From an uncultured Verrucomicrobiota bacterium (lineage in GTDB: Bacteria; Verrucomicrobiota; Verrucomicrobiia; CAZIPW01), in contig CAZIPW010000003.1 in the NCBI GenBank assembly GCA_964541675.1, positions 22,770 through 86,769 of the forward strand: a stretch of 64,000 bases of DNA, written 5' to 3'. The notes below the pieces were generated by a model, which worked only from the letters and a program-made list of their open reading frames with translations, was not told the DNA's origin and ran no database searches. A program made the translations under genes and the position numbers. Of the stretch, positions 54,083 to 59,807 are shown in pieces. Within the stretch, counting starts at the first letter, position 1; each line of letters opens with the position of its first letter.

Positions 54083-54475
54083 ATGAAAGCATTCACAAGA
54101 TCTCTTAAACCCGCGCTGCTCACGGTGGCGCTCTTCCTCTTCGTCGCTGTCACGAACGGCGCTTGGGCTACCACTCCCACCAATGCAAGTGCCATCATGG
54201 GATCCTCGGCCGTTGGCAGTCTAAGCCTTTCGATAGGAGGTAGTAATTCTGCGGCAGGTAGCGCTGTTATCAGTCAGGTCTATAACCTGATCCGTTTTGC
54301 CTATATGTTCTTCTACGCGATCGCCGTGCTTCTGGTCGCGCAGGCTTGGATGCAGTTCAAGCAGCAGAAGTATGAGGTGATGTTCGCCAGCATGGGCGCG
54401 GCTTTGGGACTCTTCCTTACCCCAGCGATCATCGACTTTATGCACGGCTTGGGCCAGTCGACAGCCAGTAACTAG
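54083..54475 (+). CDS. trbC: TrbC/VirB2-family conjugative pilin precursor (130 aa)
   Basis: Long signal peptide, then two hydrophobic helices (YMFFYAIAVLLVAQAW and VMFASMGAALGLFLTPAI) separated by a short polar loop; this is the typical VirB2 topology. Confidence 0.6.
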   Translation: MKAFTRSLKPALLTVALFLFVAVTNGAWATTPTNASAIMGSSAVGSLSLSIGGSNSAAGSAVISQVYNLIRFAYMFFYAIAVLLVAQAWMQFKQQKYEVMFASMGAALGLFLTPAIIDFMHGLGQSTASN

Positions 54476-54497
54476 TTTTTCAACCTGATTTCAAAAG

Positions 54498-54528
54498 ACG
54501 CTCCGCTTGTCAGCGGGGCGTTTTTTTT
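54498..54528 (+). terminator. rho-independent terminator after trbC
   Basis: ACGCTCCGC-TTGTCA-GCGGGGCGT hairpin (one G-U pair) followed by T8. Confidence 0.65.
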
Positions 54529-55950: not shown

Positions 55951-57945
55951 TCAGAGATTTACACGCGTATATCCAGAAGGGGAGGGTGCTGTTTCATCAA
56001 CGGCAAAATTGCCCACACAGAAGTTGCTATCCAGATGGGTTCCCTCATCGTATCTTATACCGATCTCTGTATATCCATGCGGTAATAATATGGGGATGTC
56101 TAGAGAGATATTTCCGGTGCAGCTTAGTTTTTCCCCGGCGCTTATCAGCTTGAATGGCACTGCAGACTTATCCGTACCTTGCCAGGGTCGATGATGAAGG
56201 AATCGATCAAAAGACATATCCACCTTATATTGTTCAATTTCGGGAACGGCACGTTTGGCCAGTATGATATACCCACGTGGTTTTGGAGGATGCGGCATGA
56301 CTGTCATGGTAATATGTACCTTTCTGGGGCTTGTGGGATTGCAAATCCATACGCGCGCTTCGGAGTTGAACAAATAGTAGCTGTTATATCCGCTTAGGAT
56401 ATGAGTTCTCCCGAAGAACTTATGCCAGATCCTCGCGAGAGAGTACTTTTGATTGATTTGTAACGGCGTCTTGGGCTGTTGAAGAAGAAGTGTGGACGCA
56501 ACACTGGCGTTAGGATCTCCCATATATAGTTGTGAACTATGCGGGAGTATATCCATTAGATAATCGATATCTGGTTTGGCGTTCTGGGAAAGGATGTCAG
56601 TTTCTATGGCATCACCGTACCAAAAAGGGGCTGCTTTATTAATCACAAACAAGGGTTCTACCGCTGAGAGGAGGCTGACAGCATAGCAGAGTACAAATCC
56701 CATGCAGCGATACCATTTTGGTCGGGTAATCAAAGAGCGGAATACAAGTCCCGCCAGTATAATCTGTGCTACAGCCAGAGTTTTAAAGCACCAATCCTCG
56801 CACGAACCCAGCGCAAACAGGGGAACGATCAAGGCGAGCAAAAGAGTGAGGACGGCCCGGCTTCTCTTCCATTCTTCCTTGGAGAGCAGCAGAAACCAGA
56901 CGCCGAGCTCCATAATAAAGAAAGCCGGGAACACCCGCCAGAACTCCGGCCTGTTGGCGATAAAATAGAACTTTTCAGGAAATATCTTCGTGCTAAAATA
57001 GACAGCCATTGGAAATAAGCCTCCGACAAGCAGCGCCCAGTTCTCAATGGCAAACATCTTACGTGGGCCCGCTTTGAGCAGGTGCCATAAAAGAAAGAAA
57101 GAGAGACCTATTGCCATAAAACCGTTCCATAAAAAGACGGCGCATATCCATACAGCGGCAGATGAAGTCCGCTTTTCATCCAGTGATTTAAGTAATAGGG
57201 GGGCGGCTATAATGACCGGCATAATGTACGTCGGTGACCACGCGAATAATTGAAACATATTCGCGCAGCGCATGGGAAAGGCCCATAAGTTGAGCGGAAA
57301 GGCGAGGATACCGCCGTTAATTAACATGGAACCAGCCATACTAAGCCCGCCGAATCCCCACAAGACTGCGAAGACCCAGGCTGGCAGCCGGAAGTATCTC
57401 AGGAAAATCAACCCTCCCAACGATAGTCCGAATATCGTCCATATGAGACTGGCGATATTCATGGCCAGTGTCCCGGCGTGCGCGCCTATGATGGCGGGGA
57501 CTATATAATAGCCTATAAAATAGACTATACTGATAACAGTTCCATCGCTGTATTGAACGGCTGCCGGACAAGGGCTCTTTGAGAGAACATTGAACATGAA
57601 ATTGTGTTTCGCATAATCATCAGAAGAGTTTGGTATGATGTTTCCGACACCCGTCGATACACTGAGAATAAGCGCCACGAAGATAACCGTCCCAAAACCC
57701 AGGGGAGAGAGCAGATGCGGCTCCGTGTCATAATGGTCTAGCGTGGATATCTCTGAAGGGCGTTTGAAAGCCACGAATATACCCATTCCCAGAAGAGCCA
57801 CAAAGTCCATATTGTATGGGAACTTATACCACGAGAGTAGAAAAAGGAATAAAGGCGTCAGAAGATAGATCGCCGCTAGCAGGCGCAGCATATTCCAAGA
57901 GAAGAAGGGTTTGTCCTGTTTGAAACCTGTATTTATATTATACAT
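55951..57945 (-). CDS. large polytopic membrane protein with C-terminal soluble domain; GT-C-like glycosyltransferase candidate (664 aa), paralog of 12040-13965
   Basis: Shared blocks with the 12040-13965 product in the first periplasmic loop and the following TM helices; C-terminal soluble domain of about 250 aa. Confidence 0.6.
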   Translation of the reverse strand: MYNINTGFKQDKPFFSWNMLRLLAAIYLLTPLFLFLLSWYKFPYNMDFVALLGMGIFVAFKRPSEISTLDHYDTEPHLLSPLGFGTVIFVALILSVSTGVGNIIPNSSDDYAKHNFMFNVLSKSPCPAAVQYSDGTVISIVYFIGYYIVPAIIGAHAGTLAMNIASLIWTIFGLSLGGLIFLRYFRLPAWVFAVLWGFGGLSMAGSMLINGGILAFPLNLWAFPMRCANMFQLFAWSPTYIMPVIIAAPLLLKSLDEKRTSSAAVWICAVFLWNGFMAIGLSFFLLWHLLKAGPRKMFAIENWALLVGGLFPMAVYFSTKIFPEKFYFIANRPEFWRVFPAFFIMELGVWFLLLSKEEWKRSRAVLTLLLALIVPLFALGSCEDWCFKTLAVAQIILAGLVFRSLITRPKWYRCMGFVLCYAVSLLSAVEPLFVINKAAPFWYGDAIETDILSQNAKPDIDYLMDILPHSSQLYMGDPNASVASTLLLQQPKTPLQINQKYSLARIWHKFFGRTHILSGYNSYYLFNSEARVWICNPTSPRKVHITMTVMPHPPKPRGYIILAKRAVPEIEQYKVDMSFDRFLHHRPWQGTDKSAVPFKLISAGEKLSCTGNISLDIPILLPHGYTEIGIRYDEGTHLDSNFCVGNFAVDETAPSPSGYTRVNL

Positions 57946-57962
57946 AAGATATCTTGTGCGAA

Positions 57963-59807
57963 CTATAGATTATTCTCTGTAATAGTCGTCTGATTGGCTT
58001 CTATTACCTCTTTTATAAACGCGATGGCGGGTTCGATGCCCTCCACCAGCGCCCAGAAAAACTCTTTATTTTTCGTCAAAGAACTACTAAAGGGGCTGGA
58101 TGTCTCCAGCATTCGCGTGGTCTGCTGGAAGTCCAGTAACGATTTCTTGAGCTTTCCTTCCAGCAATATCTGGTATGCCTCTGGATCTTTATCGATTAAT
58201 TCATTGATAGACGTGCCCAGCTCTATAATCTCTTTGATCTTTGGATTTTCCGGATGCTGGTGGGAGCTTTGCGGCAATATCTCCAGGGCAATTGCAGCCT
58301 TTAAGGACAGTTCGTATAAACGTACAGCATACCTATATATGGGTTTTAACGCATCTATCCATTCATGAAGCGGGATCTTGTGTTCGGGTGCCGCCTGAAA
58401 AATATCTGTCAGCCGCTCAAGGACATTGGCTCTTAAAGGTGGAATCTTGGTGAGGACATCCGGATAGCTCATATAGGCCGCTCCCGCGATCTTTGCCCCA
58501 AGTCGGGATGTGTTTATTACTTCTATTTCGGGGTGTTCGGCCACCCATAGCTCAAAAGATCTTAGATATAAATAAAGATTATTGAGAGTGGTCACTTCGC
58601 TTAGGGTATTTCCGGGTACTTTTCTTGCATTGCTCTGCCCGGCATTGTCCTCCTTGTATTTTATGTTCCTCGCTTTGTACCCCCCATAGAACGAGTCGAC
58701 AGTATGGATGAGTCCTCCCTCTCCAATGGCCATGTCCTGTCCCACGAGAATCAGTCGTCTGCACCCCATCAGTGCCGCCAGATCAGCCACAGACAAGGAG
58801 ACTGTCCCTTTTTCCAAGACGGAAGTTCCTTGCGGAAGACGCATTTTTTGTCTGAGGGTGTTGACCAGAGGACTGTTTTCTCCGCTCCAGGAAAACGCCT
58901 GCCCCTTGAAAGCCCTGATAACCGACGGATTTACAATGAAGGGCGCCACAAGATAGGTGTTGTCAGTCGGCTCGCCGGCAAACCCCCTGTAGGTGTCATC
59001 GCGCGGGTCTGCCGCCAGTACCAGATGAGGTGCTATCCCGATTTTGCGGAGTTTCTTGTACGAGGAGTTTACTCCTATGATTATTGCACGGTCTGCAGCT
59101 TCCCTGAGAAAATCCTCGGCTTCATCCAGAGAAGGGCCTGCGCCTACCAGAATGACGGGAACATTTCTGAATGCGTCCCTGAGAACTCCCACGTCCGGGG
59201 CCGCAATGTGCAGAGGCAAATTTTTGTAAGTGGATGCCTGCCACAAGAGCGCGTCGTTGAAGCCTGTCAGATGGAGATTTCTGACAATATCGAATTGTCT
59301 GGCGATTTCCGTGAAGAATCCGGCATAGATTCTTTCGTCTCTCTGCCAGACCGGAGAGAACCGAAGCGGTATCACCTCCTGAATTCTTGTCACGGGCAGC
59401 TGGTGAAGCTGTTCAAAATCGAGGGGACCGGTGGGCCCTGCCATCAGCAGCAGGCGTGGATCGCTCAGAATGTCCGTCAGATCCTGGGAAGAGAGCATGA
59501 GTTGCAGATTTTCAAGTGAACTCTCATAGACGACCACAGCCGCGGAGGAGGCCATGCGTGGCAGGAGGGCTTCTATGTGCGTTCCCAAGCCGCTGGCGAT
59601 GTATAGCGTATCGGGTCTGGGTGTCTTGACCTGCGTCTGCGCCCACATGACAGCCAGTGGTTTGTCGATATTAAGAAGGGCCCCTCCCCTTTGGGCTCCT
59701 TGGGTAAGTTTTGCGGACAATATGGGAAACCTCTTGGAAATAATATCAAAGTTATTGTCGCGGATGGCCATTCCAACATTCCTAACAACATTTGATTGAA
59801 GGGGCAA
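57963..59807 (-). CDS. Maf/DUF115 motility-accessory-factor-like protein (614 aa), paralog of 7155-8786
   Basis: ILVGAGPSLDEAEDFLREAADRAIIIGVNSSYKKL..HLVLAADPRD matches the DUF115 GxGPS ... aaD core; 18 nt downstream of the GT-C-like gene on the same strand. Confidence 0.65.
   Translation of the reverse strand: MPLQSNVVRNVGMAIRDNNFDIISKRFPILSAKLTQGAQRGGALLNIDKPLAVMWAQTQVKTPRPDTLYIASGLGTHIEALLPRMASSAAVVVYESSLENLQLMLSSQDLTDILSDPRLLLMAGPTGPLDFEQLHQLPVTRIQEVIPLRFSPVWQRDERIYAGFFTEIARQFDIVRNLHLTGFNDALLWQASTYKNLPLHIAAPDVGVLRDAFRNVPVILVGAGPSLDEAEDFLREAADRAIIIGVNSSYKKLRKIGIAPHLVLAADPRDDTYRGFAGEPTDNTYLVAPFIVNPSVIRAFKGQAFSWSGENSPLVNTLRQKMRLPQGTSVLEKGTVSLSVADLAALMGCRRLILVGQDMAIGEGGLIHTVDSFYGGYKARNIKYKEDNAGQSNARKVPGNTLSEVTTLNNLYLYLRSFELWVAEHPEIEVINTSRLGAKIAGAAYMSYPDVLTKIPPLRANVLERLTDIFQAAPEHKIPLHEWIDALKPIYRYAVRLYELSLKAAIALEILPQSSHQHPENPKIKEIIELGTSINELIDKDPEAYQILLEGKLKKSLLDFQQTTRMLETSSPFSSSLTKNKEFFWALVEGIEPAIAFIKEVIEANQTTITENNL

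Follow-up and report, generated by a model that had tools for sequence, protein, structure and literature searches.

A GT-C glycosyltransferase family near type IV filament genes of an uncultured Verrucomicrobiota bacterium, and its putative separation from Maf-type flagellin glycosylation

A 64,000-nt stretch of DNA from an uncultured Verrucomicrobiota bacterium (assembly GCA_964541675.1, contig CAZIPW010000003.1, positions 22,770 to 86,769; hereafter the window) was found to encode two paralogous polytopic membrane proteins, GT-C1 (641 aa, 12040-13965, plus strand) and GT-C2 (664 aa, 55951-57945, minus strand), which belong to an undescribed family of GT-C glycosyltransferases and lie near two type IV filament gene clusters. 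The window also encodes two proteins of the Maf (DUF115) type, Maf1 and Maf2. With middling confidence, we favour the reading that these genes serve two separate glycosylation routes: a periplasmic GT-C route, fed by a GtrB-type enzyme, on type IV filament subunits, and a cytoplasmic route in which the Mafs act on flagellins. An earlier note on this DNA had proposed instead that one Maf plus GT-C module was duplicated, with one copy for flagellin and the other, borne by a conjugative element, for a VirB2/TrbC pilin. The window is part of a 99.5-kb contig from a peat metagenome assembly (its public gene calls are cited here as L001), and all open reading frames (ORFs) named in the earlier note were present at their given coordinates when the ORF list was checked.

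Pairwise alignment of GT-C2 with GT-C1 gave 28% identity across 624 aa (E 9e-78), and GT-C1 matched the hidden Markov model (HMM) of the family with E 1e-118, which bears out the claim that the two proteins are paralogues. GT-C2 is polytopic, with about 12-13 helices, and about 200 aa at its C-terminus (about aa 480-664) form a soluble domain. In the predicted structure this domain is a beta-sandwich matching carbohydrate-binding modules (CBMs). The top Foldseek matches of the GT-C2 model were Emb arabinosyltransferases, and AftA was also among the nearest solved folds. The 664/641-aa family thus has the features by which the GT-C superfamily fold is defined, namely 7-13 transmembrane (TM) helices and a match to solved GT-C enzymes.

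Across about 122-123 relatives, D110 was conserved in 99%, K113/H114 in 91%, E346 in 88% and D384 in 99%. D110 is located, together with K113 and H114, on a helix (109-123) in the large loop after TM3. The catalytic acid of GT-C enzymes sits in a similar loop region. Because D110 is near-invariant and placed like that acid, both the GT-C-like call on these proteins and the predicted acidic motif in the first loop to which the earlier note had pointed (given there as NSDY/SDDY, DY.KH in the family) are supported. A positive-inside reading of the model suggests 13 TM helices with the N-terminus inside and the C-terminus outside, which would place D110 and D384 in the periplasm.

GT-C enzymes are difficult to recognise from sequence. 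Word-indexed protein searches returned only the query and one relative, and the relatives were obtained by an exhaustive HMM profile search, which gave 2104 (1320 at E<=1e-10). Nearly all of them were about 480 aa long and covered the membrane domain only; full-length members with the C-terminal domain formed only six clusters at 50% identity. No family match was obtained for the 664-aa protein, the 641-aa protein and five relatives in Pfam (E<=0.01), or for the first two in NCBIfam, and no curated GT-C family (PMT, PMT_2, YfhO, GT87, STT3, Wzy_C and others) matched above its threshold. We concluded that the 664/641-aa proteins represent an undescribed GT-C family, with TfpW and GT136 compared to it by description and architecture.

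The probable sugar donor was indicated by the neighbour of GT-C1. A 338-aa GT2 protein (13960-14976, minus strand; PF00535, E 2e-31) matched Synechocystis GtrB (PDB 5ekp) with E 1.9e-87 and ArnC with E 2.8e-48, and its two C-terminal TM helices, at aa 241 and 280, are typical of the GtrB/ArnC class of polyprenyl-phosphate glycosyltransferases. The gene converges on GT-C1 with a 6-nt overlap. Two relatives of the GT-C family, P0009 and P0070, carry a fused N-terminal GT2 domain. Two short members, P0010 and P0011, adjoin Glf (UDP-galactopyranose mutase) and a small GT2, and the triads of Glf, small GT2 and about 480-aa GT-C (L095, 5990-9449; L096, 6161-9443) suggest a branch of the family that depends on polyprenyl-phosphate-galactofuranose. 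Taken together, the GtrB match, the GT2 fusions and the triads point by gene context to a putative polyprenyl-phosphate-monosaccharide donor. On the same evidence, the partner of the GT-C family would be a GtrB-type synthase, not Maf. Such three-component donor logic is common to the Gtr, Arn and GT136 systems (PMC11127046). A protein acceptor would be feasible for such a pair, because a streptococcal GtrB plus GT-C enzyme is known to O-glucosylate proteins (PMC11092751).

The partner enzyme also bears on whether the 664/641-aa proteins could be polymerases, ligases or O-oligosaccharyltransferases of the Wzy/WaaL/PglL type, which use undecaprenyl-diphosphate oligosaccharides. These enzymes are likewise polytopic, of similar size and equipped with a periplasmic domain, and TfpO/PglL-type enzymes are known pilin glycosylators. 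However, neither Wzy_C nor an O-antigen ligase family was matched in Pfam, and the enzyme adjacent or fused to the GT-C is a GtrB/ArnC-type synthase of undecaprenyl-phosphate sugars. This assignment was rejected on fold and partner enzyme, and we regard it as the least probable of the readings weighed here.

The association of the GT-C family with type IV filaments was seen in the window itself. Cluster 1 (15017-27129, minus strand; Pfam N_methyl, T2SSF, T2SSE and Secretin) includes, at 15017-21873, three pilin or pilin-like genes (15017-15403, 15384-15788 and 17154-17705) and genes for T2SSF, a T2SSE ATPase (737 aa) and a secretin (642 aa). Pfam N_methyl was matched by two of the three pilins, and the remaining 134-aa ORF was called pilin-like from sequence. 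Cluster 2 spans 61088 to past 64000 on the minus strand (L001 1-6858). It includes a T2SSE/PilB-like ATPase (770 aa, 61088-63400, minus strand; PF00437, E 4e-86) and a second secretin of 700 aa in total, whose C-terminal part (63354-64000, minus strand) runs off the window and whose gene in L001 (2490-4592) has a PF00263 match. A 140-aa pilin-like protein is also assigned to cluster 2. The two clusters are paralogous and resemble type II secretion systems and type IV pili; they lie 34 kb apart in direct orientation, with a block resembling a type IV secretion system (T4SS) between them. Identity between the clusters was 25% for the secretins, 29% for the ATPases (E 6e-80) and, as given above, 28% for the GT-C proteins. 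Because the three are about equally diverged, the data fit a single, ancient duplication event in which the GT-C gene was already part of the filament cluster.

The nearest pilin gene of cluster 1 is 1 kb away from GT-C1, and the GtrB-like gene occupies the interval. The ATPase and secretin genes of cluster 2 are at a distance of 3 kb from GT-C2, for which the window contains no pilin gene. Among relatives, the gene for P0005 (in L005) is flanked on both sides by nearly identical genes for 172-aa pilins, with a DUF5753 regulator near; those for P0002 and a T2SSF protein are transcribed divergently; and 4 kb separate the gene for P0006 from one for a secretin. Every full-length relative was found near type IV pilin, T2SSF or secretin genes. 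Maf was absent near three of the four full-length relatives (P0005, P0006 and P0002), and L005, L007 and L009 contained the GT-C without a Maf.

Another explanation of these data is that the GT-C paralogues modify an envelope glycan after its polymerisation, by adding side chains to lipopolysaccharide (LPS) O-antigen, capsule or exopolysaccharide in the manner of Gtr- or GT136-type three-component systems, and that the adjacency to pilus genes is incidental. The short relatives agree with this, being found beside Glf, GT2, a heptosyltransferase-family gene and a PMT_2-like gene, as does the GtrB-type partner, which is used in the same way in O-antigen glucosylation. In contrast, all five neighbourhoods of the CBM-bearing clade contained type IV filament genes and none contained an O-antigen or capsule cluster. 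In addition, the GT-C gene of L005 lies between two pilin genes, and the GT-C proteins have diverged between the clusters as much as the secretin and the ATPase. We consider incidental adjacency of an envelope-glycan enzyme unlikely, though it is the strongest of the alternatives.

The Mafs showed a different distribution. Maf1 (543 aa, 7155-8786, minus strand) is located among four short flagellin genes with Flagellin_N and Flagellin_C domains (5189-6097, 6186-7016, 8862-9722 and 10179-11033, all minus strand), two on each side, confirming that the Maf of copy 1 sits in a flagellin locus. Maf2 (602 aa in the public call, 57963-59771, minus strand) has an ORF extendable to 59807 via a TTG start (614 aa), and its gene is not beside flagellin genes in the window. 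Both proteins matched PF01973 (MptE-like/DUF115) above the cut-off of 34.6 bits, Maf2 with 107.8 bits (E 6.5e-31) and Maf1 with 83.5 bits (E 2e-23). The AlphaFold2 model of Maf2 (pLDDT 90.3) gave a full-length Foldseek match to Magnetospirillum Maf 5mu5 (E 1e-17, TM score 0.56), and Maf1 matched 5mu5 by sequence (E 2.6e-4). The Maf-type identity of both DUF115 proteins was therefore established by the PF01973 and 5mu5 matches. The claim that they are clear paralogues held only in part: both carry PF01973, but they share 20% identity (E 5e-13), and Maf1 is about 21% identical to Maf2 and its orthologues. Such divergence makes them remote relatives within one family rather than the products of a recent duplication.

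Maf is known to act before export, while flagellin is still in the cytoplasm (PMC4065374). Maf2 orthologues of 37-40% identity in metagenome-assembled genomes (MAGs) of Opitutales were found between flagellin and FliD/FliS genes, with genes for a DegT aminotransferase, NeuB and a PseB-like dehydratase close by. Closer orthologues (48-54%; L092-L094) lie directly downstream of secretin (53-55%) and ATPase (70-75%) genes that correspond to cluster 2 of the window. The orthologues in L092-L094, L098 and L099 are without this GT-C family, and in L093, L094, L098 and L099 no membrane partner adjoins the Maf.

The secretin-ATPase-Maf loci had other features. In L093 the T2SSE ATPase and Maf genes enclose one for a 415-aa protein (8693-9940), which has an N-terminal pilin methylation motif, is very rich in Ser, Thr, Ala and Pro, and is likely to be a heavily glycosylated pilin-like subunit. 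A further gene, some 5 kb beyond the Maf2 orthologues in the downstream direction, encodes a 1022-1091-aa protein (L092 16964-20032, L093 15002-18277, L094 16686-19901). In L092 this protein carries two TM helices at its N-terminus and matches the coupling-protein families TraG-D_C/TrwB weakly. No homologue of this protein was found in the window.

Beside the flagellin and Maf1 genes, in the region 3565-11033, is a gene for a cofactor-independent phosphoglycerate mutase (iPGM) that is about 60-63% identical to iPGM of Opitutales/Puniceicoccales MAGs. This identity places the organism in the Planctomycetota-Verrucomicrobiota-Chlamydiota (PVC) group, without a close reference and probably in a deep lineage of Verrucomicrobiota. 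None of 80 iPGM loci from the PVC group contained a Maf, so the adjacency of iPGM and Maf1 is lineage-specific.

On the minus strand, the order from the right-hand end of the window is secretin 2, T2SSE ATPase, Maf2 and GT-C2. Maf2 is upstream of GT-C2 on the same strand and separated from it by 17 nt. Between the cluster-2 ATPase and Maf2, on the plus strand, are an 82-aa ORF (59955-60203) and, adjoining it, a gene for a regulator with an XRE-type helix-turn-helix and a DUF5753 domain (60214-61068; DUF5753 E 1e-19, HTH_31 E 3e-7), which is divergent from the Maf2 operon. The 82-aa ORF was called in both L001 and L091, and the L091 copy had no Pfam match. L091 alone repeats the whole arrangement, with the regulator (51%), the 82-aa ORF, Maf (65%), GT-C (37%) and a second GT-C paralogue. 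L092 has instead, after Maf, a gene for a 540-aa polytopic membrane protein with a C-terminal domain, which hhalign found to be unrelated to the GT-C family profile.

An XRE/DUF5753 regulator, accompanied by one or two small ORFs of 82-100 aa, was found near the GT-C gene in three of six neighbourhoods of the full-length clade: the window (59955-61068, plus strand), L091 (3-789; 51% identity) and L005 (7593-9010; 37% identity).

The close spacing of Maf2 and GT-C2 raises the question of whether they form one pathway across two compartments, in which, for instance, Maf2 primes a lipid or protein substrate with a nonulosonic acid (NulO), GT-C2 completes or transfers the glycan outside, and the filament of the secretin-ATPase cluster, not flagellin, is the target. 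The pair is only 17 nt apart on one strand and is kept in L091, where Maf is followed by two GT-C paralogues, and the gene next after Maf in L092 encodes a polytopic membrane protein of another kind, likewise with a C-terminal domain. Moreover, the Maf2 lineage of the window and L091-L094 lies beside a secretin/T2SSE cluster and not beside flagellins, and the Ser/Thr-rich pilin-like protein of L093 is encoded just upstream of Maf. Several observations argue against it: Maf2 has the soluble three-domain form of 5mu5, its orthologues of 37-40% identity occupy canonical flagellar/NeuB loci, the membrane partner is missing beside Maf in the four loci named above, and Maf is missing from L005, L007 and L009. 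In addition, the globular domains of type IV pilins are not exposed to the cytoplasm. We therefore give the shared pathway little credence. A specific version, in which a Maf-type enzyme was recruited from flagellin to the type IV filament system and primes a lipid or protein intermediate, possibly with NulO, before the GT-C installs or extends the glycan on pilin-like subunits outside, seems slightly less probable again.

The pairing of Maf and GT-C that the earlier note had taken as the unit thus stood only for Maf2 and GT-C2, being kept in L091, and neighbourhoods elsewhere separate the two families. The predicted co-occurrence of the families across genomes was likewise mixed, with L091 in favour, the Maf-free loci of P0005, P0006 and P0002 and the GT-C-free loci L092-L094, L098 and L099 against. 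In copy 1 there was no such pair: Maf1 and GT-C1 are encoded on opposite strands, and the 3.2 kb that separate them contain two flagellin genes and a 183-aa ORF.

The other half of that proposal concerned the T4SS-like block (28285-54475), which encodes VirB4, VirB9, VirB10, VirB11-like, ParA and ArdC-like proteins and an 897-aa protein with 7 TM segments. VirB9 and VirB10 (41872-44364) were found by Pfam scan. The VirB4/TraC-family ATPase (852 aa, 50516-53074, minus strand; PF19044, E 3.5e-30) is only 22-24% identical to plasmid VirB4/TraC. The block is very divergent, and a metagenome search with VirB4 returned one 1.8-kb fragment. Beside VirB4, at the edge of the block, is a 95-aa VirB3-like ORF with two TM segments (the two together span 50516-53364, minus strand).

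The 130-aa ORF called trbC (54083-54475, plus strand) had no match to a TrbC/VirB2 profile even at E<=1. The pilin call did not survive as made, and what speaks for a VirB2-like protein is topology (small size, a signal peptide and two hydrophobic helices) and position beside the VirB3-like/VirB4 pair. We know of no T4SS pilin that is glycosylated. After this ORF, at 54504-54528, is a terminator-like hairpin with a T8 run, which precedes a GT87-like gene on the same strand. The GT87/PIG-U-like GT-C (425 aa from 54647 in the public call, 431 aa from 54629 as ORF, both to 55924, plus strand) is convergent with GT-C2 and has at least 8 TM segments. The DUF2029/GT87-like call on the 431-aa ORF was upheld by a marginal score, 27.1 bits for PF09594 (cut-off 25), and the PF06728 (PIG-U) score of 25.6 bits (cut-off 24.5) is marginal as well. 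By hhalign this protein is unrelated to the GT-C2 family, and by tblastn it had no match in plasmids or phages. The T4SS core has a GC content of 52-60%, compared with 44-53% for genes of the first 27 kb; GC cannot assign the GT87-like gene to either, because membrane-protein genes are low in GC throughout the window.

Whether the block is a mobile element was judged from the genes that such elements carry, namely relaxase, coupling protein, integrase or replication functions, and from defined ends. Among the ORFs from 27.6 to 54.5 kb that were run against Pfam, no relaxase, type IV coupling protein or integrase was detected, no tRNA or flanking repeats were found in the window, and the 99.5-kb contig contains housekeeping genes. 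The description as a plasmid-like element thus remains unproven. The secretin-ATPase-Maf clusters of L092-L094 have no homologue of the T4SS genes of the window, and for this reason the best reading is that the block, with its VirB2-like gene and the GT87-like GT-C, is only a neighbour. No convincing trace of element ends or of phase variation emerged when the window was searched for direct repeats, tRNA and homopolymer tracts, and a promoter scan gave matches not above shuffled expectation.

The duplicated module is suggested by the physical order VirB2-like, GT87-like, GT-C2 and Maf2, and by the VirB, ParA and ArdC-like genes upstream. Beyond the missing TrbC/VirB2 match and mobility genes, it is contradicted by the layout of copy 1, by the unequal identity of the two pairs (20% for Maf, 28% for GT-C) with different neighbourhoods elsewhere, by the synteny of L092-L094, which keep Maf2 with ATPase and secretin and lack the T4SS genes, and by the lack of any tblastn match for GT-C2 among 72,556 plasmids and 50,697 phages. 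Since copy 1 is unpaired, the conserved neighbours of the two families differ and the GT-C has a canonical partner of its own, the neighbourhoods do not support a duplicated, possibly mobile module for flagellin and a conjugative pilin. It is largely refuted by these data already, and we regard it as very improbable.

The closest functional parallel for the GT-C proteins is TfpW of Pseudomonas aeruginosa/paraeruginosa, a GT-C pilin D-arabinofuranosyltransferase encoded beside pilA that uses a polyprenyl-phosphate sugar (bioRxiv 10.1101/2020.04.19.049825). The comparison is one of fold, size and gene context. Both are GT-Cs of about 650 aa with genes near type IV pilin genes, the type of donor being read here from context, and TfpW has also been compared with AftA/Emb, the nearest solved folds of GT-C2. 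The gene is immediately beside a pilin gene, as for TfpW, in L005, and GT-C1 is 1 kb away with the GtrB-like gene between. The two differ in that no DprE/PPPRS-like genes for D-arabinofuranose were found in Pfam scans of the window, where the adjacent synthase is GtrB-type, and in the C-terminal domain, a CBM-like beta-sandwich here and tetratricopeptide repeats (TPR) in TfpW. Pilin modification in the present organism is putative.

Gtr-type systems (O-antigen glucosylation, ArnC/ArnT and streptococcal GtrB with PgtC2) are similar in the GtrB/ArnC-type GT2 beside GT-C1, in the GT2-GT-C fusions within the family and in the precedent for a protein acceptor (PMC11092751). They differ in that the present GT-C falls outside the Pfam GT-C families (GtrC, ArnT/PMT, YfhO). 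By architecture, the GT-C plus CBM arrangement is shared with GT136 ORF12 of Citrobacter youngae O1, of about 650 aa (PMC11127046), and with Emb, AftA and AftD, which combine 11-13 TM helices of a GT-C with a C-terminal beta-sandwich CBM. AftA and Emb were the best structural matches, and Glf beside the short relatives fits the furanose theme. However, the partner found here is not a phosphoribosyl pyrophosphate (PRPP)-dependent polyprenyl-phosphoribose synthase, and the known acceptors are polysaccharides, in contrast to the pilus context.

Compared with the Maf systems of Aeromonas caviae (Maf1) and Magnetospirillum (Maf 5mu5), the PF01973 core is present in both proteins of the window, Maf2 has the full three-domain fold, and Maf1 belongs to a flagellin locus. 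Genomes commonly encode several Mafs. What differs is that Maf2 heads an operon with a GT-C beside a secretin/ATPase cluster and not beside flagellin or NulO genes, and that the NulO pathway was not found in the window.

From the folds, domains, paralogy and neighbourhoods we infer a donor, a sidedness, acceptors and a co-regulation that would make up the two separate routes. The GtrB-type GT2 (13960-14976) would make a polyprenyl-phosphate sugar on the cytoplasmic side, and the donor would then be flipped across the membrane. GT-C1 and GT-C2, with a predicted periplasmic active site, would move the sugar from the lipid donor to an extracytoplasmic acceptor, each paralogue belonging to one of two filament clusters that were probably duplicated anciently. 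The most likely acceptors would be pilin or pseudopilin subunits, or glycans already on them, by the logic of TfpW, and the CBM-like domain of the GT-C may hold the acceptor. Maf1 and Maf2 would glycosylate the four flagellins in the cytoplasm before export. The Maf2-GT-C2 operon under the XRE/DUF5753 regulator would most simply be read as decorating two types of surface filament under common control.

Several points weigh against the two routes as drawn here. The pilin association draws on five neighbourhoods, because the full-length clade is tiny (six clusters), and the short relatives (about 480 aa) are in apparent polysaccharide contexts (Glf, GT2, Glyco_transf_9, PMT_2). Neither a GtrA-type flippase nor a small ORF for a flippase with four TM segments was found in the window by TM scan, and GT-C2 has no adjacent GtrB-type gene of its own; both also distinguish the present genes from Gtr-type systems. 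NulO biosynthesis genes were absent from the window. The acceptors are putative only, pilins included. The C-terminal domain is CBM-like and not TPR as in TfpW, and a CBM is the pattern of GT-C enzymes acting on glycans (Emb, AftD, GT136; PMC11127046), which keeps a glycan acceptor a serious rival. Finally, the conserved spacing of Maf2 and GT-C2 and the membrane partner in L092 hint at a functional link that separate routes leave unexplained. It is a puzzle why, in two genomes, an operon should begin with a cytoplasmic Maf and continue, 17 nt on, with a periplasm-facing GT-C, and why the Maf2 lineage has moved here beside a secretin/ATPase cluster.

What is new is the CBM-bearing, pilus-associated GT-C clade; three-component GT-C glycosylation is known, and the Mafs are typical of their family. 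The GT-C family has about 2100 detectable metagenome members, yet it is without a Pfam or NCBIfam model or a characterised member. Pilus glycans influence phage resistance, adhesion and antigenicity. If the favoured reading with two separate routes is true, the GT-C proteins would represent a second GT-C-dependent route of pilin glycosylation besides TfpW, and the first indicated in the PVC group.

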